64,000 nt of DNA, from NCBI GenBank assembly GCA_964654015.1, contig CAZZHQ010000001.1, positions 6,455-70,454 on the forward strand, in the 5' to 3' direction. Of this stretch, positions 6,167-50,001 are shown piece by piece. This DNA is from an uncultured Dehalococcoidales bacterium. GTDB taxonomy: Bacteria > Chloroflexota > Dehalococcoidia > GIF9 > AB-539-J10. Positions within the stretch are counted from its first letter, which is position 1. The number at the start of each line of letters is the position of its first letter. The notes beneath the pieces are model-generated. The model was not told where the DNA came from. It ran no database searches and saw only the letters and a program-made list of their open reading frames with translations. The translations under genes were made by a program, and so were the position numbers.

Positions 6167-6952
6167 TTACAACCCGATACTTTTCTGATGGTTCCTCAAT
6201 TTTTTTATCTCATCGGTGCAGGGATCAACTTCATAAAAAACAAATTCACTATTTTCTTTAGTGAGGAAAATATTCCGCCAGACTAATATTTTTCCGTACT
6301 GAGTATCTATTTCTACTTTTACCAAGCTAAGAGACCAAGGAGAAAGACTATTCTTTATCCAGTGATCTTTAAGCTGGAAAGCCCACCCATCGTGGGCATT
6401 ATAATCGGTTCCCCTGCAGGAGGGACATACATTCGTTTGGTCATTTTCCAAAAATTGTTTTAAAGTTTCAATGCTCATCAAAGGATAAGAATACCCGGCA
6501 GAACCCGCTACGCCAAAGCGAGTGAAGAGTTTTTTTCCTACTTCTACAGTTTTTTTATAACTAATATATCCAGCTATTTCTCCCGATACTTTTTCGGGGG
6601 GTGGTTCTCTTAGACACCCAATCTCTACCTGAAGCTCAGCTTTCTCTTCTTCTAGTTTGGATATTTCAACATCTTTCTCGTCCAATACAGCACTAATTTC
6701 TTCTACTTGGCTATCTTTGATATTCAACTCGGTAATTTTCTCTTTAAGATCGCTCTTTAATCTGTCTCTTTCGGTCTCTACTACTGCTTTTTCATCTTGC
6801 AGCGCAGCTGCTTCAGCTTCTGCTGCTGTTTTCCCAGTTTGCAGCATTGCTACCTGAGACTCCAACTCATTTATTCGGCCGGTAGAGCATCCTGGCGAAA
6901 TTAATCCTACTATCAGAACTGCCAAAGCTATACTTGCAATCTTCTTTTTCAT
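6167..6952 (-). CDS. lipoprotein with coiled-coil region
   Basis: Signal peptide plus lipobox (LISPGC), followed by ~100 aa of E/K/L-rich heptad-like sequence and a Cys-containing C-terminal domain. Confidence 0.6.
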   Translation of the reverse strand: MKKKIASIALAVLIVGLISPGCSTGRINELESQVAMLQTGKTAAEAEAAALQDEKAVVETERDRLKSDLKEKITELNIKDSQVEEISAVLDEKDVEISKLEEEKAELQVEIGCLREPPPEKVSGEIAGYISYKKTVEVGKKLFTRFGVAGSAGYSYPLMSIETLKQFLENDQTNVCPSCRGTDYNAHDGWAFQLKDHWIKNSLSPWSLSLVKVEIDTQYGKILVWRNIFLTKENSEFVFYEVDPCTDEIKKLRNHQKSIGL

Positions 6953-6986
6953 TTCTATTCTCCCCTCAAAAAAGCTAAATTCGCTG

Positions 6987-7205
6987 TCACTCGCTTTTCA
7001 GCTTTTCCAGGTCTTCAAAAACATTGGTCAATTCCTGCCTGGCTTTCCTGAGAGTATCCTCCATGGACTTTATCAGCGAGGCTGCCTCCCTGGCATCATC
7101 AGAAAGCTTGTCCACAGGGGTTTCAGAGCGGTCAAGCCTTTTCAGTATCTCGTCAAGCCGTTCCTCTTTCTCTTCATAGGTCATATTTTCAATTTTGCGT
7201 TTCAT
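6987..7205 (-). CDS. xseB: exodeoxyribonuclease VII small subunit
   Basis: ~72 aa with YEEKEERLDEILKRLDRSETPVDKL, typical of XseB. GGAGGG SD 8 nt upstream of the ATG at 7205. Overlaps the xseA stop. Confidence 0.85.
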   Translation of the reverse strand: MKRKIENMTYEEKEERLDEILKRLDRSETPVDKLSDDAREAASLIKSMEDTLRKARQELTNVFEDLEKLKSE

Positions 7206-8640
7206 TGCCTGTACCCTCCGTTTTCTGAACGACACTCCATGTATAGCCATCGACAAACTGAGTTTCGATTGCTTCATCCTGCTGTAGCTGCGTAACACTC
7301 CGCAGGATTTCACTGCGAAGGTTCCTGGTAATGGTATATCCTTTCCTGAAAATCTGGGTGGGCATCATCGCGTTGAGTTGCCTTTCCATGTTAACCAGAT
7401 TCACTTTTCGCTCAGTAACTATCTTCAGATACCTTGGCAGGTTAATATGACTGGAAGTGGATATTAAACGCTTCCTACTTGAATTTAACGACCAGTCACA
7501 CTGGTGACGAAGTTTCTGATTTTTATTATTGAGAAACATCTTTTTACTGTTAAAGCATTCCTCGAATTGTGACTTTATCTTCAGCGTGCCGTTAGTAAAT
7601 TGCTGCAGTACAAGCTCATACTGTTTCCTGAATCCATTACGAGCTCCCAGTGACTTCCTGGATAACTCACGGCTGGATAACTCCATCCGCCAATCAACAG
7701 TATTCCTCAAACGACCACCGTCAAATTCAAGGCCATGCAGTAATTCTTGAAGAGTATTGACCAGAACTTCAGCGACTGCGGTTGGCGTCTTGAAGCTCGA
7801 ATGTGCAACAACATCCAGGACGCCAGTATCAATCTCGTGTCCTATACCTACCCATACAGGTACGGGGCACTTACTGATGGAGCGAGCAATCTGTTCGTTG
7901 TCGAACCATGCCAGGTCAAGCTGCGAACCTCCTCCTCTCACGATACAGATAACATCCACTTTTGCCTTTGCCAGAAGCTTAATCGCTGAAACCGTTTCCC
8001 TTTTGGTATTCTCCCCCTGCATAGTGCAGTCAGCAAGTATTACCTGAAAAGAAAATGCTGAGCTAAAAAGCGTTTTTGTAAAATCGTTATAGGCAGCCGA
8101 CTCTTTTCTGGTGATCAAACCTATTCGCAATGGAGCAGGGGTCAGGTAAGTTTCTGTATTCTTCTTAAGTACGTTTTCCCGGGATAACTTTTCAATAATT
8201 TGCCTGCGGTTAAGATTTATTTGTGACTCGCCAAACGAGGGGTCAATATCATAGATATTTAGACTGAGGCCGTATACTTCATGGTAGCGCACGGCGCAAA
8301 GGACGCAGACTTCGCTATTGTCCTGTAACGCATCCGGCATACCCGCCTCACGTAGTTTATTAAGGATTTCATTGTATTCCCCCTGCCAGATAATCGCCCT
8401 GATTTGCGCAATTATATTTCCCTTCTCATCTACATCGGTAAGCTCACAATAGTAGTTTTTATAACTGGTAGTACTCCTGGGTACAACCAAATGAGCTCTA
8501 ACCCAGAACTCCTGGTTGGACAAATCCAGGAGAGATTTCTTGATAGATGACGTTATTTCCTGTAATTGATATATCTTGTTTGCTGGATCCCGGTGAATAA
8601 ATGCTTTCATTGTAATCAGTTGTTCCCTGTTTATATGCAA
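7189..8640 (-). CDS. xseA: exodeoxyribonuclease VII large subunit
   Basis: 483 aa with an N-terminal OB fold, catalytic region (RGGGS, DLAWFD) and long helical C-terminus. Start is either TTG at 8640 or ATG at 8610. Confidence 0.85.
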   Translation of the reverse strand: MHINREQLITMKAFIHRDPANKIYQLQEITSSIKKSLLDLSNQEFWVRAHLVVPRSTTSYKNYYCELTDVDEKGNIIAQIRAIIWQGEYNEILNKLREAGMPDALQDNSEVCVLCAVRYHEVYGLSLNIYDIDPSFGESQINLNRRQIIEKLSRENVLKKNTETYLTPAPLRIGLITRKESAAYNDFTKTLFSSAFSFQVILADCTMQGENTKRETVSAIKLLAKAKVDVICIVRGGGSQLDLAWFDNEQIARSISKCPVPVWVGIGHEIDTGVLDVVAHSSFKTPTAVAEVLVNTLQELLHGLEFDGGRLRNTVDWRMELSSRELSRKSLGARNGFRKQYELVLQQFTNGTLKIKSQFEECFNSKKMFLNNKNQKLRHQCDWSLNSSRKRLISTSSHINLPRYLKIVTERKVNLVNMERQLNAMMPTQIFRKGYTITRNLRSEILRSVTQLQQDEAIETQFVDGYTWSVVQKTEGTGNETQN

Positions 8641-39488: not shown

Positions 39489-39565
39489 TGGTACCCCTGG
39501 GGCGACTCGAACGCCCGACACGCGGTTTAGGAAACCGCTGCTCTATCCACCTGAGCTACAGGGGC
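39489..39565 (-). tRNA. tRNA-Arg (anticodon CCT)
   Basis: Hand-folded cloverleaf: acceptor GCCCCTG/CAGGGGT, D arm GCTC..GAGC, anticodon stem GCGGT/ACCGC with loop TTCCTAA, T arm GGGCG-TTCGAGT-CGCCC. CCA is encoded. Confidence 0.9.
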
Positions 39566-39566
39566 A

Positions 39567-39642
39567 TGGTGGAGATAGGGGGATTCGAACCCCCAACCTC
39601 TGCATTGCGAACGCAGCGCTCTCCCAACTGAGCTATATCCCC
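39567..39642 (-). tRNA. tRNA-Ala (anticodon CGC)
   Basis: Acceptor GGGGATA/TATCTCC with the G3:U70 identity pair, anticodon loop TTCGCAA, T arm GGGGG-TTCGAAT-CCCCC. CCA is encoded. Confidence 0.9.
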
Positions 39643-41112: not shown

Positions 41113-41393
41113 ATAACATTCCCTCCTTGGTTTAGTTTCTATTATTCAGACGCCTGTTAAGTGTATCAAATCTGGCTGCTATAATTAAGGATTAAAAAGC
41201 CCCAACTTTGATAATTAGTTGAGGCCAATATAAAAGCTTTAGTTTTATAGGTTAATGGTGGCTCTTTATTCCTTCTCTTTTAGCTTGAGAACTTATCCAA
41301 GCATATATTTTATATTCATCGTTTCCTATCTTCGTGTTTAGCTAACACATAGGCTTTCATTTTGTGGCTTCTTACCAGGGTTTAAAGAGGCTT

Positions 41394-41588
41394 TTATATA
41401 AAGTTTGGGTCTAAGATAGAGCTGAGATAATCCCCAAAGCCTTCGTCTGTTTTCTTTTTTAGGTTCTTTAATTCAGGTGTGATTTCCTCAAGGTAATCTT
41501 TGTCTTTTGGTATCCTTATGCTCTCTAGCCCGGCTTCCAGCCAGACCTTGAGGTAATTGAATCTACTAGGATACCCCTCACCATACAC
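41394..41588 (-). CDS. hypothetical 64-aa protein, last ORF of the candidate defence operon
   Basis: GTG-initiated ORF 17 nt downstream of the OLD-like gene. No domain recognised; it may be a remnant. Confidence 0.3.
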   Translation of the reverse strand: MYGEGYPSRFNYLKVWLEAGLESIRIPKDKDYLEEITPELKNLKKKTDEGFGDYLSSILDPNFI

Positions 41589-41605
41589 AATTGCATTTAA
41601 TCTTA

Positions 41606-43456
41606 TTATAATCCCTCCCTAGCTTTGCCCACATTGCCAGAGTTTCCTTCCACGGCATCATAGATATGAGTTAGTTTATCTTTTATTTCATCATCAATCT
41701 GCTCGGGTATCATTTTCTTAATAACCTTGTCTGCAAGTGGTATTTTCCACCAACCTCTATTTCGACCTTTATCTAGGAGGCAATCAAGCCTACTAACTGT
41801 CTCTCCTACCTCTATCTCGTCGGGTATGTGATCGCTTTTACCCTTTTTCTCAGCATAGTCCCGAGCAAATTGTAATATGATGTCACGAGGATAGTAATCC
41901 TCAAGGTCTCCTTTATCCAAGAACTGGGTATTCGCCTTGGGAACCACATCCTCAGCTTTTTCCCTTACCCATTTGGCATTCCTATCGGCTAAGCAAAATA
42001 ACTTGAAAGTCGTTCTTTGTACCACCTCTGAACTCAAATATTTCTTGATGCTGCCTGCCCCTTCAGCATCAATGACAAGAATATGAGCTCGTTCAAATGG
42101 CTTTCCCATTTTCCTTGCCCAGTCTGCATAGACATCCTTATCTGTAGGTCCTTCTACAACCAAAACTCCATTTGCTAGGAGAAGATCCGAGGGTTTTACA
42201 CCCAGATTGTAGAACAAATCCGACAGGTTATTAGTGTTTAGAGGATCAATCAGGGAATATTTCTGGCCTGACTCGCTATCTTTATTGATGTAAACATAGA
42301 AAATGTTTCCTCCTATGCTTAGAAACTGATCAATAAACACATTAGAGTGGGTAGCAATTAAGTACTGGTGTTTGAAAGTGTCTTGGTTGTCAGCCAGAAA
42401 ACGCAGCATTTTCCTCTGTAAATCAGGGTGAAAATGAACCTCTGGCTCTTCTATTAAAACTACCTTATTAGAACCGTGACGCACAATTTTAGTAGCCATA
42501 GCAAGCATTTGCTCGACACCAGAGCCATAGTGGCTCAATGGTAACAGCAGTCCCCCCGCTCTGATCTGTATATCGCGTTTTCCCCCCTGTCCTGGGGGAA
42601 AATTGACTAAAATGTCCCGGTCGTCAGCAAAGATGAGCTCCTTGATAAAGTCCTGCACTCGTGAGAGTATTGTGAGTTCAGCCTGTCCAGCATCACGCAA
42701 GTTCGCCAGCGAGTTGACAGTCTCATCACCTGGTTCAATCTTACGAACGGCGACAACATGCACACATAATTCCTTGACAACCTCACCGTAAAGCTTCCCT
42801 AGAAATTCTCTGAGGCTATTTTCTATGAGTGGGTAGTGCCTGCTCCAAAGCTCATCATTACAAGGACCTATGATCTTATAAATAGTCTCGTCTTTGAAAC
42901 CATCTTCCACCAAAGCTAGAATTTTCCTATTATCTCTGTCGAACAGGGTAGGTTCTTTACTATATGCAGGGTAGTCATTGGGTATTTTCACCTTTGTGAG
43001 ACTGGTATAGAAGTGTCCCTCTCTATGCTCGATAAATCCGCTTATTTTGATAATCTTAGGATAGCCATTCTTACGTTGAAACATGAATAAAACAGGGGGA
43101 TTCGTATTCCTTTCATCGTGCCCATCAATCATCTCAACTAAAGCCTGGTCACTCTTTTCGATTTCCAGGGAGAAACAAAATGATATTTTCTTGGTTAAAT
43201 CCTGGCTGAAAAACCAATCCTTGAAGTAGGAAGAATCGCCATGGAAGGCGATTGGAAAATTAGATAAGTTGCTAGCATTTCTTATAGAGAATAATATCAG
43301 CTCAACGAGGTCCAAGAGCTTTAGAACGTTGGATTTTCCAGCATTGTTAGCGCCTATGAACAAGTTAAAATCTCCCAACTGAAGGCCATCCTCATTATTT
43401 AAGCCCTTCTCACCGAAACTCAAGCAATTCTTAATTGACAGCTCTCGAATCTTCAC
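41606..43456 (-). CDS. OLD-family nuclease: ABC-type ATPase plus C-terminal Toprim
   Basis: Walker A GANNAGKSN, signature-like GSGVEQ, Walker B VVLIEEPEVHFHP, H-loop ATHS. The C-terminal region has Toprim acidic motifs (VVEGPTDKD, VIDAEG, LADRN). Confidence 0.8.
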   Translation of the reverse strand: MKIRELSIKNCLSFGEKGLNNEDGLQLGDFNLFIGANNAGKSNVLKLLDLVELILFSIRNASNLSNFPIAFHGDSSYFKDWFFSQDLTKKISFCFSLEIEKSDQALVEMIDGHDERNTNPPVLFMFQRKNGYPKIIKISGFIEHREGHFYTSLTKVKIPNDYPAYSKEPTLFDRDNRKILALVEDGFKDETIYKIIGPCNDELWSRHYPLIENSLREFLGKLYGEVVKELCVHVVAVRKIEPGDETVNSLANLRDAGQAELTILSRVQDFIKELIFADDRDILVNFPPGQGGKRDIQIRAGGLLLPLSHYGSGVEQMLAMATKIVRHGSNKVVLIEEPEVHFHPDLQRKMLRFLADNQDTFKHQYLIATHSNVFIDQFLSIGGNIFYVYINKDSESGQKYSLIDPLNTNNLSDLFYNLGVKPSDLLLANGVLVVEGPTDKDVYADWARKMGKPFERAHILVIDAEGAGSIKKYLSSEVVQRTTFKLFCLADRNAKWVREKAEDVVPKANTQFLDKGDLEDYYPRDIILQFARDYAEKKGKSDHIPDEIEVGETVSRLDCLLDKGRNRGWWKIPLADKVIKKMIPEQIDDEIKDKLTHIYDAVEGNSGNVGKAREGL

Positions 43457-43479
43457 TTCAAATATCTACTCCATCGCTT

Positions 43480-46400
43480 TCACTTAGCTTCTAATATTAT
43501 TTTTACCAGATCGTCTATTTGGGCAAGCTCCTCTTTAAGCTCGGCTTTTATCAATCGGCGGGTGTGGCCGATGCTGCGGGATTTTGCGTGTTGTGGGAGC
43601 AGTTGCTCTACCTTTCGGGTACATTGCTCGCCAAGTTGGGAGAGTGCCTTGTGATTTTCATCCGATGAACTGTATTGAGGAATAGGAATTTCTAAAACCT
43701 TTTTGTGAATATCCCTGGGCCCCCACAAACCTCGGCTCTGCATTGGTTTCAGAAGTTCATCTACAGTAGGAGAATTGAGAACAGTAGCCAGATAATAAGC
43801 CTCTTCTTTGTTATCAGTATCAAAATAATACGTCTTGGATTCTGCCACAAACCCCTGTATTTCAACACTCTGTCCCTCAACTTCAATGCTGATGGGTTTG
43901 TCCTCCGCCACGCAGCCACACAGATAGGTAGCAGATGTGGGATAAAGGACTTTATACTTTGCCAAGCGATTTTGGCCTGTGATTCCCTTGATGCGGTCGA
44001 GCCTTTGATAAATGTCCATCTTCTCTGCCTTCTCTCCTCTCCGCTCTTCCCACTCAGACTGAGCCTTTTCCAACCAGTTTGCCAGGTTAAGAAAGCCCTG
44101 GCTGCGGGCTTCATTACTACTCAAAATCTTGAAATGCTTTCCTGAGGGCAGAAGGGGTAAGACCACCAATCTAAAATCCAAATGACCGAAGGGGACAATG
44201 TCTGTGGAAAGCAAAGTGGCATAGAGGAAATCCTTGTCGATGTTTCCTTCAAGTCTTAATCCCTTGTAAGCTGGCTTAGCTTCCTTTTGAGCTCTTTCTG
44301 CTGTCTGAACATAAGGTGTGGTGGGGTCAAAGCCGAACACGGGATGAGATTTTATTTCCACGAACCACAAAGAGCGAGGAACGATAGTCGCACCTTCCTT
44401 AAAATAGGGCTGATAGAAGCTTCTCAAACCCACGGTGGGCTTCCTCTTCGAAGTGCTCAGGAAACTCCGCTTTCCTATCTGGGTGACAAAGAGTTCCTCC
44501 GGAGTAACTGTGAGAGCCTGCTTTGCCTCCGTCAGAGAGGAATTCTTTCGTTTTAGCTTTCCAAAGAAGCTCTGGCATTTTATAGAGCGTCCTGTTTTAA
44601 TTCTCCTTTTGCCGAAGAACACACAGGCGGGCACATTAAATAGTGGCGCTACCTTTTCTAAATCCCAGACTTCCTCGAAACCAAGGTCAAGGGAAAAATA
44701 GGAGCGACGGAAGTTATAATGCTGGTCGGCAGAAAATACGCTTCTAGGAAGGACAAAACCGATAGTTCCTCTTTCCTTAAGGTAAAGGTCAGCAGCTCTA
44801 AGGAAGAACAATGTTGCCAGTTCCATGTGAGTTATTAGTTCGCCTCTGCCGGAGAGAAGCCTGTATTCCTCTATAATTTGCCGCTTGAGAAATTTCTGGT
44901 ATTCACCCTTCTCCACATAACGGTAAGAGAGCCACGGTGGATTGCCCAGAACCACATCGAATTTCCCTTTGAGGAATAGAGGTTTATACAGATTTTTGAG
45001 AATGAAAGCCCAGATGGTGTCTCGCCTTCCTTCTATGAGCTCCTTCATCGTCTTGGCGAGATTGTAGAGGGCGAGGGAAAGAGTTTTATCAGCAGCTATT
45101 CTGGGAGATGCTTTCCCCAGGAAGTTAAGAAATGTTTTCTCGTCTCCCCCTTCTCTGCCAGCGAAATTCCGAGCAAAGTCCTTTGATCCCTCGATAGCTT
45201 CATCGTAAAGTTGGGAGTTATGGGTAAGGAGTTCGGGGATTAGGACTCGCTTCCCATCGATTTCCATCTTGAACCCAAGGAAGGGCATGTCCATGTCCAT
45301 CTGCCCCTCCATCCGGGGAAGCATGATAGAATCAGCAAGATAAACGGGAAGCGAGACAGGCTTTCTTCTCTTCCTAAGTAGATCGCCTAAGGCAAGCAAG
45401 TAATTCGTTTTAGAGATGATTACCGCCAGGGGGTGAATATCTATGCCCGCTACATTTTCAAGAATATGTTCCAATGTATCCCTGGAATTTCCCAGTTGAT
45501 CTCTCTTGTGCTTTATAGTCATATAAAGGAAAGTCCCCGAGCCACAGGCGGGGTCGAGAACAGAGTACCGGGGATTCTCCTCCAAGGTCTTTTCTACCAT
45601 ACGGTGAGCAAGCCAGTCCGGGGTATAGTATTCACCTAAGTCGTGACGTGTCTCAGGATCAACAAGCTGTTGATAGAGTGTCTTGAGAACATCCTCGGAG
45701 AGTTCCTTCAAATTATATCTCAGGAGCAGACTCAGGAGCTTTTTAGAAATATCAAGTCCGATAGCCCCTGAATCCTGCCGTGCTAGCCAGGAGAAGAAGT
45801 CCTCTTCCAGGAAATTGGCGATGCGCTGGCCCCGGAAGAACTCTCCGTTCAATATACTGGATATTTCCTCACTTGAAGGAATTAGACTTTTTTCGGTAAG
45901 TCTCGCCCAGGCAATCAACTTGGCCAGCGTCGCCAGATAAGTATGCCTGAGGAAAAGGTCTTTGCTTCCGATGACGCTACCGTAGGTAACACGGAGATAC
46001 CTCTCCCAGTTTTCGTAAATGACCTGAAAGTCACTTCTATCTTCGACTTGTATCAGGGCGTCTTTCAGCAGTCGAAAGGAAAAGAGAAAAGCAGGACTTC
46101 GCATGCCGAAGTCTCGTTCAATCTCCTCAGTTCGGGGTGGAAGGATTCTTTCCCTGAGGAAATACCTATCCAGCCAGAAATATGCCTGGTATGGGTCTGG
46201 AGTTGGTAACCTGAGCTCATCAACCTTATCAAGCAGGATGTCTTCTGGGAGCAAGGGCTCGGTCAAAGGCTTTTCGGTACTGGGAGAGAATATCTGGAAG
46301 TCTATCCCATCTGCTGCCATGCACAGGTAGTTTACCTTTCGCTCCTCTTCTTCGGACCAGAGGCAGGCGATATATCTCTTAAGCTGATCTTTGGCTTCTG

Positions 46401-46722
46401 GCAGCGTCTTATTCAAATCCCTCTCAAATTCAATCACTAAATTTCCATAAAGATTGTCTACCTTGCCTCTTAACACGATATCCTTTTTCCTGCTCTTCAC
46501 ATATTTTTCGACGCCGTGGAGGTAATCCTCAACGAATTTTGTGTTTACATCTCCGAATATGTCATTGAGAAGTAGAAGGAATCTCTGAGTTTTTGCTGAT
46601 TCCGAGCCCAGGTGGGAAATCTGTTCAACATAATTCTGGATACTCGCTGATTTCTGGACATCAAACAGGTCAGAAAAGCGAGATGGTTTTTCAGGGATTT
46701 TAGGTGGTTCTCTTTTTCTCAC
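43480..46722 (-). CDS. single-chain N6-adenine DNA methyltransferase with MmeI/type IIL-like N-terminal domain and large C-terminal TRD-like region
   Basis: Gamma-class order of GEYYTPDW, motif I DPACGSGTF and motif IV GNPPWLSY. The N-terminal segment GKVDNLYGNLVIEFERDLNK..AKDQLKRYI resembles the MmeI-family nuclease region. 1080 aa. Confidence 0.8.
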   Translation of the reverse strand: MRKREPPKIPEKPSRFSDLFDVQKSASIQNYVEQISHLGSESAKTQRFLLLLNDIFGDVNTKFVEDYLHGVEKYVKSRKKDIVLRGKVDNLYGNLVIEFERDLNKTLPEAKDQLKRYIACLWSEEEERKVNYLCMAADGIDFQIFSPSTEKPLTEPLLPEDILLDKVDELRLPTPDPYQAYFWLDRYFLRERILPPRTEEIERDFGMRSPAFLFSFRLLKDALIQVEDRSDFQVIYENWERYLRVTYGSVIGSKDLFLRHTYLATLAKLIAWARLTEKSLIPSSEEISSILNGEFFRGQRIANFLEEDFFSWLARQDSGAIGLDISKKLLSLLLRYNLKELSEDVLKTLYQQLVDPETRHDLGEYYTPDWLAHRMVEKTLEENPRYSVLDPACGSGTFLYMTIKHKRDQLGNSRDTLEHILENVAGIDIHPLAVIISKTNYLLALGDLLRKRRKPVSLPVYLADSIMLPRMEGQMDMDMPFLGFKMEIDGKRVLIPELLTHNSQLYDEAIEGSKDFARNFAGREGGDEKTFLNFLGKASPRIAADKTLSLALYNLAKTMKELIEGRRDTIWAFILKNLYKPLFLKGKFDVVLGNPPWLSYRYVEKGEYQKFLKRQIIEEYRLLSGRGELITHMELATLFFLRAADLYLKERGTIGFVLPRSVFSADQHYNFRRSYFSLDLGFEEVWDLEKVAPLFNVPACVFFGKRRIKTGRSIKCQSFFGKLKRKNSSLTEAKQALTVTPEELFVTQIGKRSFLSTSKRKPTVGLRSFYQPYFKEGATIVPRSLWFVEIKSHPVFGFDPTTPYVQTAERAQKEAKPAYKGLRLEGNIDKDFLYATLLSTDIVPFGHLDFRLVVLPLLPSGKHFKILSSNEARSQGFLNLANWLEKAQSEWEERRGEKAEKMDIYQRLDRIKGITGQNRLAKYKVLYPTSATYLCGCVAEDKPISIEVEGQSVEIQGFVAESKTYYFDTDNKEEAYYLATVLNSPTVDELLKPMQSRGLWGPRDIHKKVLEIPIPQYSSSDENHKALSQLGEQCTRKVEQLLPQHAKSRSIGHTRRLIKAELKEELAQIDDLVKIILEAK

Positions 46723-47012
46723 TTAAGTTCTCCATGAATAACTCGCCGGGCGATTTCGAAGGCGGCAGCAATACGGATTATCTTGGTATCGCCAAGTCCC
46801 TTTATACCCAAGAGCTTTTCCAACGGCTGGCTTGCCATTCCCTTAAAGCTGCCGAATTTTTGCAGAATCTCCTGAGCAATCTCTTCCGCTGAACTACCCT
46901 GAATACCAGGTGCTATAAGAATAGAAAGAAGCTCGGCATCAGTCAGCGTTTCGGCGCCAAGTTCTCGAAGCTTGCCACCGGGGTGATGCCATTTCTGAGG
47001 CTTATCATTCAT
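46719..47012 (-). CDS. RadC/UPF0758 N-terminal helix-hairpin-helix domain protein lacking the JAB domain
   Basis: LTDAELLSILIAPG...AEEIAQEILQKFGSF..L..IKGLGDTKIIRIAAAFEIARR matches the RadC N-terminal half. The ORF ends where the JAB/MPN domain normally begins, and its TGA overlaps the GTG of the next gene (GTGA). Confidence 0.75.
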   Translation of the reverse strand: MNDKPQKWHHPGGKLRELGAETLTDAELLSILIAPGIQGSSAEEIAQEILQKFGSFKGMASQPLEKLLGIKGLGDTKIIRIAAAFEIARRVIHGELK

Positions 47013-47433
47013 CTTTTATTTTCTAAGTTTATTTACCTATCCAGTAATATTCACCAAGTCAACGTCGAGAGGTTTCTCTTTCAAGGCACTAACCTCCATA
47101 ATAGAAAATTCTATAAGGCGCCTCTCCATTTCTATTTTACACATTACCTAGTCAAACTGTGTCCCTTGAAAACAATCTTCATGGTCGTACCAAACTTATA
47201 CCTTTTATATAAAGTTCCTCTTTGTTTAACCATACTAAGAAAATGTGCCTCGACAAAAAAGCATTATCTTTCTGTAGTTATTTTATCACTACAACATGCA
47301 CTTCTCATACAGTCTATCTCAATTCTCTATTTACACAAAACACTGTAGCCCCAATCAGTACAGATGCTTGCTTTAATCCCTGTCACATAGTATATTCTCT
47401 AACTTAACAGTTAATTGTGAGAGGAGCTGCAAG

Positions 47434-48348
47434 ATGCCACCATATGTCTTTTTCGAAAACCAATTTATGCCTTTAGAGGATGCCAAGATAGGAGTTTTAA
47501 CCCACGCCCTGCACTATGGCACGGCCTGCTTTGAGGGCATCCGTGGTAACTGGGACAGTGAGCAGAATAGAATCTGCCTCTTCCGTATTCAAGATCACTA
47601 TAAGCGCATGCTCAATGGCTGCCACCTGCTAAAAATCAAGCTGCCTTATTCGCTCGATGATTTATGCCAGTTGACTGTGGATTTGCTGAAAAAAAGTGAA
47701 TTCCGCGAAGATGTCTATATTCGACCCCTTGCCTATAAAAGTTCTCAGGCAATAGGGGTTCGACTCCATGGGCTGGAAGATGCACTGCTTATCATCGTAA
47801 CTACCCTGGGGTCTTACCTGGGTAAAGATAAGGTTCGTTGCTGCACGTCATCGTGGCGACGGGTAGACGACACCATGATTCCTGCCCGTGGGAAAATCTG
47901 CGGTATATATGTAAACAGCGCCCTGGCTAAAACCGAAGCAGAGGAAAATGGCTTCGATGAGGCTATATTGCTCAGCAACGATGGACATGTATCTGAAGGA
48001 AGCGGCGAGAATATATTCGTTGTTATTGATGGCACTCTGATAACACCACCCTCACAAGATAATATCCTTATTGGTATCACCAGAAATACGGTCATAGAAC
48101 TGGCGAAGAAGGAGTTGGGGATAGACACCGTAGAGCGAAGCATCGATAGGAGCGAATTATATCTTGCGGATGAATGTTTTTTCACCGGCACCGCAACACA
48201 TATTGCTCCAATCATAGAAATTGACAACCGCATAATAGGCACAGGCGATATCGGTAAGATTACCGGTGATTTACAGAAATTATATAGTAAAGTAATAAAG
48301 GGCAGTAATCCTAAATATGACAAATGGGCTACCTTCGTTTCCCCTTAA
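47434..48348 (+). CDS. ilvE: branched-chain amino acid aminotransferase (class IV)
   Basis: 304 aa with a fold-type IV pattern (FEGIRG, YIRP, GENIF, GITR). Confidence 0.85.
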   Translation: MPPYVFFENQFMPLEDAKIGVLTHALHYGTACFEGIRGNWDSEQNRICLFRIQDHYKRMLNGCHLLKIKLPYSLDDLCQLTVDLLKKSEFREDVYIRPLAYKSSQAIGVRLHGLEDALLIIVTTLGSYLGKDKVRCCTSSWRRVDDTMIPARGKICGIYVNSALAKTEAEENGFDEAILLSNDGHVSEGSGENIFVVIDGTLITPPSQDNILIGITRNTVIELAKKELGIDTVERSIDRSELYLADECFFTGTATHIAPIIEIDNRIIGTGDIGKITGDLQKLYSKVIKGSNPKYDKWATFVSP

Positions 48349-48551
48349 GGTTCCTGCCATACTTGGCCCCATGGTAAAATGACACTATCGGCTTGCTGAG
48401 CTGTATATCAAGTTCTCTTAATTACCAACTTAACGGTGCTAGCACACGTCCAATAACCGATAGCATACAGCGCAGTGAAGATGCCGCCGCTGCACTACTA
48501 CTACACTTCCAGCAAAATAGTTGGCGAAAAAGGGAAGGCTAAAAAGAGGAA

Positions 48552-49172
48552 ATGATTACCATAATTGACTACGGCGCCGGAAATTTGCGTAGCGTGTCCA
48601 ATGCTATTACAAGTCTGGGATATAAAGCGAAGGTAAGCAGCGACCCCGATGAAGTAATCCGAGCTGAATCTGTCATCCTTCCAGGGGTCGGGGCCGCCGC
48701 AGACACGATGGCAAACCTGGAGGAGAGAGGACTGCTCGATCCAATTCGCCAGGTAATCGCCGCAGGGCTTCCCTTCCTTGGCATCTGCATGGGATTGCAG
48801 GTTCTGTTCACTGAAACAGAAGAGGGAGGGTTGCATAAATGCCTGGACATCATTCCCGGCAAAGTGAGAAAGTTGCCTTCAGGGCTGAAGAATCCTCATA
48901 TGGGATGGAATCAGGTACGGCAGCTTTACTCCCACCCTATATTCGATGGAATCCCAGACAATTCATACTTCTATTTTGTTCATGGCTATTATGCTGACCC
49001 TGACGATAGCTCTCTCGTTGCAGGAGAGACAAAATATGGTCTGCCTTTATGCAGCGTCCTTATCAGGAACAACTTGATAGCGACGCAGTTTCATCCAGAA
49101 AAAAGCGGAGCGTTGGGGCTCAGGATGTATAATAACTTTATAAAAATAGCTGCGTCGAAGCAAACATTCTAA
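48552..49172 (+). CDS. hisH: imidazole glycerol phosphate synthase, glutamine amidotransferase subunit
   Basis: [19 protein letters not shown] (catalytic Cys), QFHPEKS. Confidence 0.9.
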
Positions 49173-49203
49173 ACTGGAACAAGAAGGGAAGGCTTTACCG
49201 TAT

Positions 49204-50001
49204 ATGGACTATACCCAGAATATGCTGACCAAAAGGATAATTCCCTGCCTGGATGTAAAAGATGGCAGGGTAGTAAAAGGCAGCAGTTTCAAAAACTTGC
49301 GAGACGCTGGTGACCCAGCGGTATTAGCACGCTTCTACTACGAAGAGGGTGCCGATGAGCTTGTTCTGCTGGATATAAGTGCCACCCCCGAAGAAAGAAG
49401 CACCATGGTAGATGTGGTCCAACGCATTTCAGGGGATATTTTCATGCCCTTAACCGTAGGAGGGGGACTACGAAACATCAGTGACATAAGACATCTCTTG
49501 CTGGCAGGGGCCGACAAGGTCTCCATTAACACCGCCGCTGTGCTTACCCCTGCCCTGATTAGCGCAAGCGCTGGTAAATTCGGCAGCCAATGCATCGTGG
49601 TAGCTATAGACGCCAAACGTATAGAGGAGAAAGAGCAACCCCACTGGGAAGTCTATACCCACAGTGGCACCCGGGCAACAGGAATAGATGCCCTTTCCTG
49701 GGCAAAAAAAGTAACAACATTGGGAGCAGGGGAGATTCTGCTTACCAGCATAGACGCCGATGGACATCGCTCGGGATACGACATTGACCTGACCCGCACT
49801 ATTTCCGAAGCAGTAAGCATACCTGTCATAGCCAGTGGAGGTGCTGGCACAGCCGAGGACCTGTATCAAGCCCTGGTCGCCGGAAAAGCAGACGCGGTTC
49901 TTGCTGCAAGTATATTCCATTACAAAAGTTTTTCTATACATGAGATTAAGAAATATCTAAGGCAACGAGGATTAGCAATACGCATTGAACCAAAAAGGTA
50001 G
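49204..50001 (+). CDS. hisF: imidazole glycerol phosphate synthase, cyclase subunit
   Basis: [29 protein letters not shown]. An alternative start at 49222 would give the canonical [12 protein letters not shown]. Confidence 0.9.

Follow-up and report, generated by a model that had tools for sequence, protein, structure and literature searches.

Genes and layout of the locus

We analysed a stretch of 64,000 nucleotides (nt) from an uncultured Dehalococcoidales bacterium (GenBank assembly GCA_964654015.1, contig CAZZHQ010000001.1), in the following called the window. It contains a block of four open reading frames (ORFs) that we re-derived, together with their junctions, from the letters of the window. 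They encode a 97-amino acid (aa) helix-hairpin-helix (HhH) protein related to the N-terminus of RadC (in the following called RadC-N), a 1080-aa enzyme with a DNA methyltransferase (MTase) domain, a 616-aa nuclease of the OLD family and a small protein of 64 aa. RadC-N and the enzyme are a conserved two-gene unit, and the OLD gene next to them is separable from this pair.

46719..47012, minus strand: RadC-N (97 aa), a standalone UPF0758_N HhH protein without a JAB domain
43480..46722, minus strand: 1080-aa single-chain enzyme of type IIG/IIL-like build, its nuclease-like N-terminus followed by a helical connector, a gamma-class N6-adenine MTase and a C-terminal region resembling a target-recognition domain (TRD)
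41606..43456, minus strand: OLD (616 aa), an ABC-type ATPase plus Toprim, standalone and Class 1-like
41394..41588, minus strand: 64-aa ORF without a family match, probably not a conserved component

An earlier note on this DNA had described four co-oriented minus-strand ORFs, and this layout was found exactly as claimed. The stop codon of RadC-N and the GTG start codon of the enzyme overlap by 4 nt (GTGA, 46719-46722), a gap of 23 nt (43457-43479) lies between the enzyme and OLD, and another of 17 nt (41589-41605) between OLD and the 64-aa ORF. No terminator-like sites beyond chance were found between the genes. The domain assignments of the three larger proteins were borne out by Pfam, NCBIfam and PADLOC, none of which matched the 64-aa ORF, and the supposed character of the genes as parts of a conflict system is likewise supported.

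RadC-N and the enzyme form a conserved pair

For the comparison, 80 loci centred on the enzyme were taken from species-representative genomes and 50 centred on OLD from metagenomes (individual loci are designated L001 and so on), and each was scored for all four proteins. RadC-N was located immediately upstream of the enzyme in 50 of the 60 species-representative loci with enough upstream DNA. Sorted by the identity of the enzyme, RadC-N was present at 34/34 loci with at least 50%, at 16/21 loci with 44-50% and at 0/5 loci below 44%. The pair was found in Chloroflexota, Nitrospirota, Nitrospinota, Planctomycetota, Bacteroidota, Desulfobacterota, Acidobacteriota, WOR-3 and other phyla, its two genes overlapping or abutting in most loci, and the identities of RadC-N and the enzyme were correlated (Spearman 0.87, n=51). 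Clustering of all neighbouring ORFs in the 80 loci yielded no other gene that travels with the pair. We also considered a replacement partner in the divergent loci lacking RadC-N; judged from reading their sequences, the upstream genes there are mutually unrelated. In the searched literature, whose coverage was incomplete and did not include REBASE, no description of a RadC-N or HhH partner for type IIG-like enzymes was found.

In several lineages, toxin-antitoxin (TA) cassettes (MNT plus HEPN, antitoxin plus PIN_3, ParE) sit precisely between the RadC-N gene and the enzyme gene and separate the two, which otherwise overlap (L010 405-1177; L014 7208-7992; L017 7369-7988; L031 5978-6232; L048). 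What lies beside the pair in other phyla varies, and conflict genes are frequent there, such as TIR-TPR, GHKL ATPase, IrrE/HTH, DarT, WYL plus OLD, and TA modules, consistent with defence islands and independent modules. A gene for DarT, a single-stranded DNA thymidine ADP-ribosyltransferase, lies downstream of the trio of RadC-N, enzyme and OLD or of the pair in two Dehalococcoidia loci (L085 5036-6013; L013, cluster c81), and in L014 a 79-aa WYL protein and a distant 660-aa OLD follow the enzyme. These neighbours are further signs of a defence-island setting.

The 97-aa protein matches Pfam UPF0758_N alone (E=1e-16). The NCBIfam RadC models cover just its N-terminal ~85 positions (PRK00024 positions 3-84) and stay far below their cut-offs (RadC: 71.5 bits against 180). 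A RadC-like JAB domain is absent: the protein stops at residue 97 and the flanks hold no JAB remnant, for which there is no room because the next gene begins by the 4-nt overlap. An alignment of 47 RadC-N orthologs showed a conserved core (W.HPGGKLRE ... PLE..L.IKG..D.KIIRIAAAFE). Close relatives in a library of 1.8 billion proteins are mostly standalone and 90-125 aa long, with a typical gene length of ~95-105 aa, and the identity of RadC-N across phyla (53-88%) is higher than that of the enzyme. The protein is therefore not the truncated RadC for which it had been taken. We likewise rejected the remnant of a radC gene split by insertion of the island, since a conserved gene of ~97 aa is present at 50 loci across phyla without a JAB remnant.

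Some relatives are tandem double-RadC-N proteins of ~200 aa. In others, UPF0758_N is fused to N6_N4_Mtase (P0318, P0358) or to UPF0020 (P0310). The proteins with fusions or tandem RadC-N comprise P0318, P0358, P0310, P0290, P0242 and P0243. Fusion to the 1080-aa enzyme family itself was looked for among them and rejected, P0290 being a fusion to TPR repeats and P0318 to a different methylase class. The fusions to unrelated DNA methylases, the linkage to the enzyme and the co-divergence with it together suggest a direct role of the RadC-N HhH module alongside DNA methylases, in the simplest case as a DNA-binding accessory subunit.

The enzyme resembles single-chain restriction-modification enzymes

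The 1080-aa enzyme, with more than 5,800 database relatives, matches Pfam N6_Mtase and Eco57I, and MmeI_Mtase weakly (25.5 bits versus a 27-bit cut-off). Its strongest family match is the PADLOC model REase_MTase_IIG (PDLC03630, E=2.4e-83). Three motifs were located within it.

45529..45555, minus strand: MTase motif I, S-adenosylmethionine-binding DPACGSGTF (residues 390-398), from translation and conservation
44932..44943, minus strand: MTase motif IV, catalytic NPPW (residues 594-597), within GNPPWLSY
46423..46458, minus strand: nuclease-like motif D89-x8-E98-F-E100 (VDNLYGNLVIEFE) in the N-terminal domain

Motif I aligns with motif I of the type I subunit HsdM; its residues D390, P391, C393, G394, S395, G396 and F398 are invariant in 50 homologs, as are N594, P595, P596 and W597 of motif IV. 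D89, E98 and E100 are also invariant in 50 close homologs, and the triad is kept family-wide across phyla, with or without RadC-N, L034 being the sole degenerate exception. A family-profile alignment placed RGRVD89...IE98FE100 on RGFVD70...IE80MK82 of MmeI. In MmeI, D70, E80 and K82 are fully conserved, and their mutation abolishes cleavage (PMC2731913). From this alignment, the N-terminal domain of the enzyme is likely homologous to MmeI-type nuclease domains, with a putative nuclease activity. A single-sequence search of the PDB with the enzyme N-terminus returned nothing. With the full-length AlphaFold model (mean predicted local distance difference test score, pLDDT, of 68.6), Foldseek found DrdV as the best match, followed by PglX/BrxX, the type ISP enzymes LlaBIII/LlaGI, BsaXI and BpuSI.

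In the C-terminal region, which is conserved as a scaffold, residues 691-780 and 901-990 form variable patches. Between the window and its closest relative, L005, the enzyme diverges in a single tract, and this tract falls on the second patch. Across phyla the family shares 44-85% identity, the C-terminal region included. Distant full-length homologs (28-33% identity) were found on plasmids, one of them annotated as BseRI. Phage carriage of the enzyme was considered too and rejected, as no homologs were found in phage genomes.

The OLD nuclease is a separable neighbour

The 616-aa protein matches Pfam AAA_15, AAA_21 and OLD-like_TOPRIM. Invariant in 18 homologs are the Walker A residue K41, E336/E337 and H370 as well as the Toprim residues E435, D439, D463, D491, D517, E519 and D520. 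Its best solved relative is 6P74, the OLD protein of Thermus scotoductus (E=1.3e-11 over residues 217-473). That protein is a Class 1 homolog, and Class 1 OLD genes are single isolated genes (PMC6755086). Among the neighbours of 56 OLD-bearing loci, no cluster of UvrD/PcrA/Rep helicases was found. The protein fits a standalone, Class 1-like OLD: as in phage P2 Old and the Thermus scotoductus protein, ATPase and Toprim are encoded in one gene without a UvrD-type helicase partner. It differs from them in that the similarity is remote and in its typical embedding between two metabolic genes.

The OLD clade is largely confined to Dehalococcoidia-like metagenome bins. Its members (43-55% identity) are lodged between the methionine-salvage genes mtnA (IF-2B) and mtnP (PNP_UDP_1), for instance in L002, L004/L098, L093, L096, L097, L103, L105, L107, L126 and others, and one or both of these genes lie beside OLD in 22 of 47 OLD-centred loci. 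In loci with OLD only, its spacing to mtnA is -4 to +15 nt, with a frequent 4-nt overlap. The mtnA-OLD-mtnP synteny is unusually stable for a supposed mobile defence gene.

A fixed partnership of OLD, MTase and RadC-N, as the earlier note had proposed, was not upheld by the comparison of neighbourhoods across genomes that it had suggested as a check. This comparison confirmed RadC-N next to the enzyme in many phyla and found OLD next to the enzyme in Dehalococcoidia only. Among the species-representative loci, 42 extend at least 2 kb downstream of the enzyme; OLD follows it at 2 of these, both from Dehalococcoidia, and at none of the scored enzyme loci from other phyla. Conversely, 13 OLD loci extend at least 3.5 kb upstream, and 3 of them contain the enzyme. 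Gene-order maps showed that the interval from mtnA to mtnP in Dehalococcoidia carries variable cargo. This may be OLD alone (many loci), RadC-N and enzyme alone (L007, L008, L054) or both (L009, L014, L088/L110), then always in the order RadC-N, enzyme, OLD. The trio is also found at other sites: by hisH-ilvE in the window and L005, by a CNNM gene in L001/L006, and in L085. Since the window has neither mtnA nor mtnP, its trio has been relocated. Thus, the claimed unit has a real basis in that it recurs in at least three other Dehalococcoidales contexts and RadC-N is a true partner of the enzyme, but OLD is an optional member.

We observed deletion scars at L086 1017-1140 and L117 7799-7965, in which the first ~25-30 codons of RadC-N are joined to the last ~20-30 codons of the enzyme. 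The two scars are independent, have different junctions and lie directly upstream of an intact OLD gene; here the pair was lost and OLD retained. The converse was seen in L005, the closest relative, with an enzyme 96% identical to that of the window. There, RadC-N and the enzyme are intact and OLD (6639-8491) is broken: the reading frame shifts at or after the Walker A region, and the Toprim DAEGAG motif contains a stop codon. This OLD gene is a pseudogene unless the breaks are assembly errors.

These findings show OLD to be separable from the pair. In such compact genomes OLD packs just as tightly on mtnA where the enzyme is missing, and tight spacing is therefore no sign of coupling. The adjacency of OLD and the pair is best explained by a shared variable region together with one arrangement inherited within a sublineage.

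Surroundings of the block and repeat elements

The block is flanked by 281 bp and 421 bp of DNA with a G+C content of 0.34-0.35, and bounded by a CoA-disulfide-reductase-like gene, which scores below the curated cut-off, and by ilvE, which scores above it. The AT-rich flanks and the two neighbours thus agree with the earlier note. The lower G+C content that it had ascribed to the locus was not found, and a low-G+C island was therefore rejected: the four-gene block has a value of 0.446 against a window mean of 0.445 (44th percentile among equal-sized windows), with the OLD gene alone slightly low (0.419). Genes for tRNA-Arg and tRNA-Ala are indeed nearby (39489-39642), at a distance of ~1.75 kb rather than the 1.5 kb given before and on the far side of the reductase gene. 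With this housekeeping-type gene in between and no integrase seen, tRNA-linked integration was discarded as well.

Compared with L005 (window 41564-49983 versus L005 111-8533), the region shows mosaic divergence. Identity is ~70-80% in hisF/hisH and 72-89% in ilvE; it reaches 93-100% over 2.7 kb of the enzyme gene (46710-44011), followed by ~80% at 44010-43711, and in the OLD gene segments of 99% alternate with segments of 63-80%. This pattern suggests that segments of the defence genes have recently recombined or been exchanged laterally, with a chimeric metagenome assembly as the alternative. The spacer between RadC-N and ilvE (window 47160-47460) is 84-93% identical to that of L005, more than the adjoining RadC-N and ilvE coding DNA. 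Divergent promoters or a leader element of ilvE may reside in it; a search of this spacer against Rfam gave no match at E<=1.

A search of 5.8 billion proteins for homologs of the 64-aa ORF returned nothing but the ORF itself. One partial relative with a different start and end is present in L085. The GTG start codon of the window ORF lies inside an intergenic repeat of ~65 nt and its stop codon inside a 15-nt direct repeat.

41580..41652, minus strand: copy of the ~65-nt oriented intergenic repeat, found by blastn and fuzzy matching
47202..47216, plus strand: upstream copy of the perfect 15-nt direct repeat CTTTTATATAAAGTT
41391..41405, plus strand: downstream copy of the 15-nt direct repeat CTTTTATATAAAGTT, overlapping the stop codon of the 64-aa ORF

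The final ~14 codons of OLD, the 17-nt gap and the beginning of the 64-aa ORF are all provided by the window copy of the longer repeat (core CAATGTGGGCAAAGCTAGGGATGGATTATAGAAAGATTAAATG). Most likely, this ORF is an accidental reading frame opened by the repeat, and not the fourth component for which it had been taken. Altogether, 17 copies were found in 12 loci, in variable regions of Dehalococcoidia, all intergenic and co-oriented with the cassette genes. Each follows OLD or the enzyme at a distance of 12-93 nt or separates small cassette genes, and the next gene often starts 47-98 nt further on (L007 11294-11336; L008 13121-13163, 13691-13733 and 14402-14444; L009 12816-12858 and 13357-13399; L011 13401-13443 and 13972-14014; also L054, L085, L087, L088/L089/L110 and L115). 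A structured RNA was rejected for lack of covariation, a folding energy of -1.8 kcal/mol and no Rfam match. The reverse complement contains a good promoter-like site (TACACA-17-TATAAT), and the repeat may be a promoter/operator or a recombination site at cassette boundaries.

The 15-nt repeat pair brackets the four-ORF block. These are the only two copies in the 64 kb, and none appeared in 100 shuffles. In L005 the upstream copy is present with one mismatch; none of the other loci has the repeat. A target-site duplication, an att-like remnant or a coincidence in AT-rich DNA could account for it.

Comparison with known systems

The enzyme shares with the type IIL/IIG enzymes (MmeI, DrdV, BpuSI, Eco57I, BseRI) a single chain of nuclease-like N-terminus, helical connector, gamma-class N6-adenine MTase and C-terminal recognition region, with motif I preceding NPPW and no second methylase nearby. 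It thus combines a nuclease-like part and a gamma-class MTase in one chain as in the broad type IIG class, the nuclease part being a motif-level match. The likeness to MmeI itself extends to D89 and E98, which align with D70 and E80. Here the previously claimed type IIL-like N-terminus holds in part: these acidic residues do align, but the homology is weak and remote, and the third position does not fit the PD-(D/E)xK motif of MmeI (PMC2731913), as E100 takes the place of K82. Members of the MmeI family are defined by a similarity of E<1e-20 over the whole length (PMC2731913), whereas the enzyme profile matched MmeI 5HR4 with E=5.5e-4 in two short stretches, and the Pfam MmeI_N, MmeI_hel, TRD and C models gave no matches at threshold. 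No particular gene consistently flanks the nuclease-bearing MmeI homologs (PMC2731913), unlike the enzyme family with its conserved separate HhH partner gene.

BREX shows two parallels: the enzyme fold resembles PglX, and an OLD ATPase-Toprim gene lies directly beside a methylase-based system. OLD-ABC/Toprim modules occur next to BREX and related systems in at least 1,242 taxa and have been read as semi-autonomous backup effectors; RadC or HhH partners are not mentioned there (PMC12839542). An OLD gene beside methylase-based defence has thus already been described and is not new in kind, although the earlier note had not counted it among the OLD contexts known to it. At the 80 loci, however, no PglZ, BrxC, BrxL or other BREX gene is linked to the enzyme, which scores 20-32 bits with the NCBIfam PglX models against cut-offs of 400-900 and has a nuclease-like N-terminus that PglX lacks.

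The remaining classifiers gave a similar picture. The MADS models MAD2 and MAD3 scored 65.6 bits against a cut-off of 720 and 29.2 against 420. GajA of Gabija matches OLD at E ~1e-20 on the shared ATPase/Toprim core, and no GajB helicase is a neighbour. The AriA models of PARIS match the ATPase half of OLD only (E ~3e-22; AriAB E=3.5e-15), AriA structures match its residues 246-384 only, and there is no split AriB partner. The NCBIfam model retron_eff_Eco8 scored 58 bits against a cut-off of 250, with no Rfam match in the locus and no reverse transcriptase among the neighbours. Finally, the 97-aa protein shares the N-terminal HhH domain with RadC/UPF0758 proteins, but lacks JAB and is linked to a methylase rather than to the usual RadC contexts. 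The PADLOC and profile searches suggested earlier therefore place the enzyme with the type IIG model and leave the whole set outside BREX, MADS, Gabija, PARIS and retrons.

Interpretation and alternatives

We consider it probable that the locus is a small defence island of two separable modules, a restriction-modification (RM)-like pair of HhH protein and enzyme, and a standalone OLD. In the first module, a non-specifically DNA-binding RadC-N of 97 aa would be translationally coupled to a 1080-aa enzyme of MmeI/DrdV architecture, with a PD-(D/E)xK-like nuclease domain carrying a D...E-x-E triad, an N6-adenine MTase and a target-recognition region. The enzyme would methylate its own recognition sites in the host DNA and cut unmethylated incoming DNA, and RadC-N would be the accessory subunit that loads, bridges or holds it on DNA. 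In the second module, OLD would act alone as a second, independent or 'backup' layer of defence, adjoining the pair because both modules occupy the same variable region in Dehalococcoidia.

A number of observations weigh against this interpretation. The catalytic Lys of MmeI is an invariant Glu throughout the enzyme family. MmeI_N matches are sub-threshold (E=0.004 to 0.06) and were obtained for 2 of 10 diverse members. The hairpin bearing D89 is poorly modelled (residues 67-94, pLDDT <50), and for this reason a fold search with the N-terminal 321 residues as the model produced nothing at E<=0.001. The suggested role of RadC-N is drawn from its linkage and fusions; a distant Methylocystis homolog of the enzyme carries an XRE-family regulator in the upstream slot, and the small upstream gene of an RM operon could be a regulator instead. 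Moreover, the trio recurs as a block in at least four contexts with a constant enzyme-OLD spacing of 18-24 nt, and in Dehalococcoidia the enzyme is followed by OLD genes of three variants (616-, 527- and 660-aa types), so that some functional synergy between the pair and OLD is conceivable.

The last two observations would also fit an integrated system, in which the MTase marks self DNA, OLD is the dedicated effector against unmarked DNA, RadC-N and the small ORF are subunits and all parts are needed. The co-oriented genes with their 4-nt overlap, their gaps of 23 and 17 nt and no predicted terminator in between are in line with such a system, as are the trio with its regular spacing in L001/L006, L085 and L088/L110 and the other OLD variants right after the enzyme in L009 and L014. 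The change from Lys to Glu could further mean that the enzyme nuclease is inactive and needs a partner. Yet OLD is missing at 40 of the 42 enzyme loci and in all phyla other than Dehalococcoidia, most OLD relatives lack the enzyme, OLD outlasted the pair in L086 and L117 and is broken beside an intact pair in L005, and it lies equally close to mtnA in the absence of the enzyme. The invariance of the D/E/E triad in lineages without OLD is hard to explain for a dead domain, and the enzyme, having its own nuclease-like N-terminal motif, need not rely on OLD as an effector. The small ORF, too, lacks homologs. We regard the integrated system as very improbable. Less improbable, though still unlikely, is that the pair is a mobile orphan adenine MTase with a dead nuclease and a DNA-binding helper (epigenetic, anti-restriction or PglX-like with unlinked partners), and OLD an unrelated neighbour. 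Every member lacks the canonical catalytic Lys, the nuclease domain is not confirmed by a significant match to any fold or family, the fold is nearly as similar to PglX/BrxX as to DrdV, and the whole protein, its C-terminal region included, is unusually conserved. Published MmeI homologs without a PD-ExK motif did not cleave (PMC2731913). On the other hand, a relic would drift, as the degenerate L034 shows, and D89, E98 and E100 are invariant across phyla; type IIG REase-MTase models give the best family match, neither BREX nor helicase partners are linked to the pair, and the neighbourhoods resemble defence islands. An acidic residue at the position of the Lys is reportedly compatible with catalysis in BamHI (D94/E111/E113), which makes catalysis by the enzyme plausible.

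For RadC-N, the weaker alternative to an accessory subunit is a controller similar to C proteins, timing the enzyme such that methylation precedes cleavage after horizontal transfer. A small, translationally coupled gene immediately upstream is in the classic position of a C protein, and the XRE-family regulator in the upstream slot of a distant plasmid homolog would fit this role. The same holds for the TA cassettes between the two genes: neither gene was lost in these loci, and their tolerated insertion indicates that strict translational coupling is dispensable. HhH modules, however, bind non-specifically to the DNA backbone and are atypical as operator-reading regulators. The conservation of RadC-N, which exceeds that of the enzyme, better suits an interface to protein and DNA backbone than co-evolving operators, and its covalent fusion to other DNA methylases points to a role in engaging DNA. 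We therefore judge a controller to be distinctly unlikely, and retain the accessory subunit as the preferred role.

In a more far-reaching version of the two-module interpretation, the pair would be a widespread and so far undescribed two-component RM family in at least a dozen phyla, with a standalone HhH protein as the obligatory loading or bridging subunit of an enzyme of DrdV/MmeI architecture and with D/E/E cutting without a Lys, repeatedly joined in Dehalococcoidia to a second-line OLD that fires when the enzyme is blocked. This version is offered tentatively, as we think it rather doubtful in its full extent.

The OLD adjacency adds little by itself; it fits the published semi-autonomous layers and is largely explained by the shared variable region of Dehalococcoidia. 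The interest of the locus rests on the conserved HhH-enzyme pair rather than on the proposed OLD partnership. For annotation, this means that 'truncated RadC' genes next to large N6 methylases represent a real conserved partner. If the pair is an active RM system, the single-chain type IIG/IIL enzymes, a class valued for engineering new DNA specificities, would gain a widespread branch that is uncharacterised, and enzymes of this kind would be seen to be capable of relying on a separate subunit that binds DNA non-specifically. Together with the fusions of RadC-N to methylases, the orphan 'RadC N-terminal' module would then gain a function as a helper of DNA methylases.

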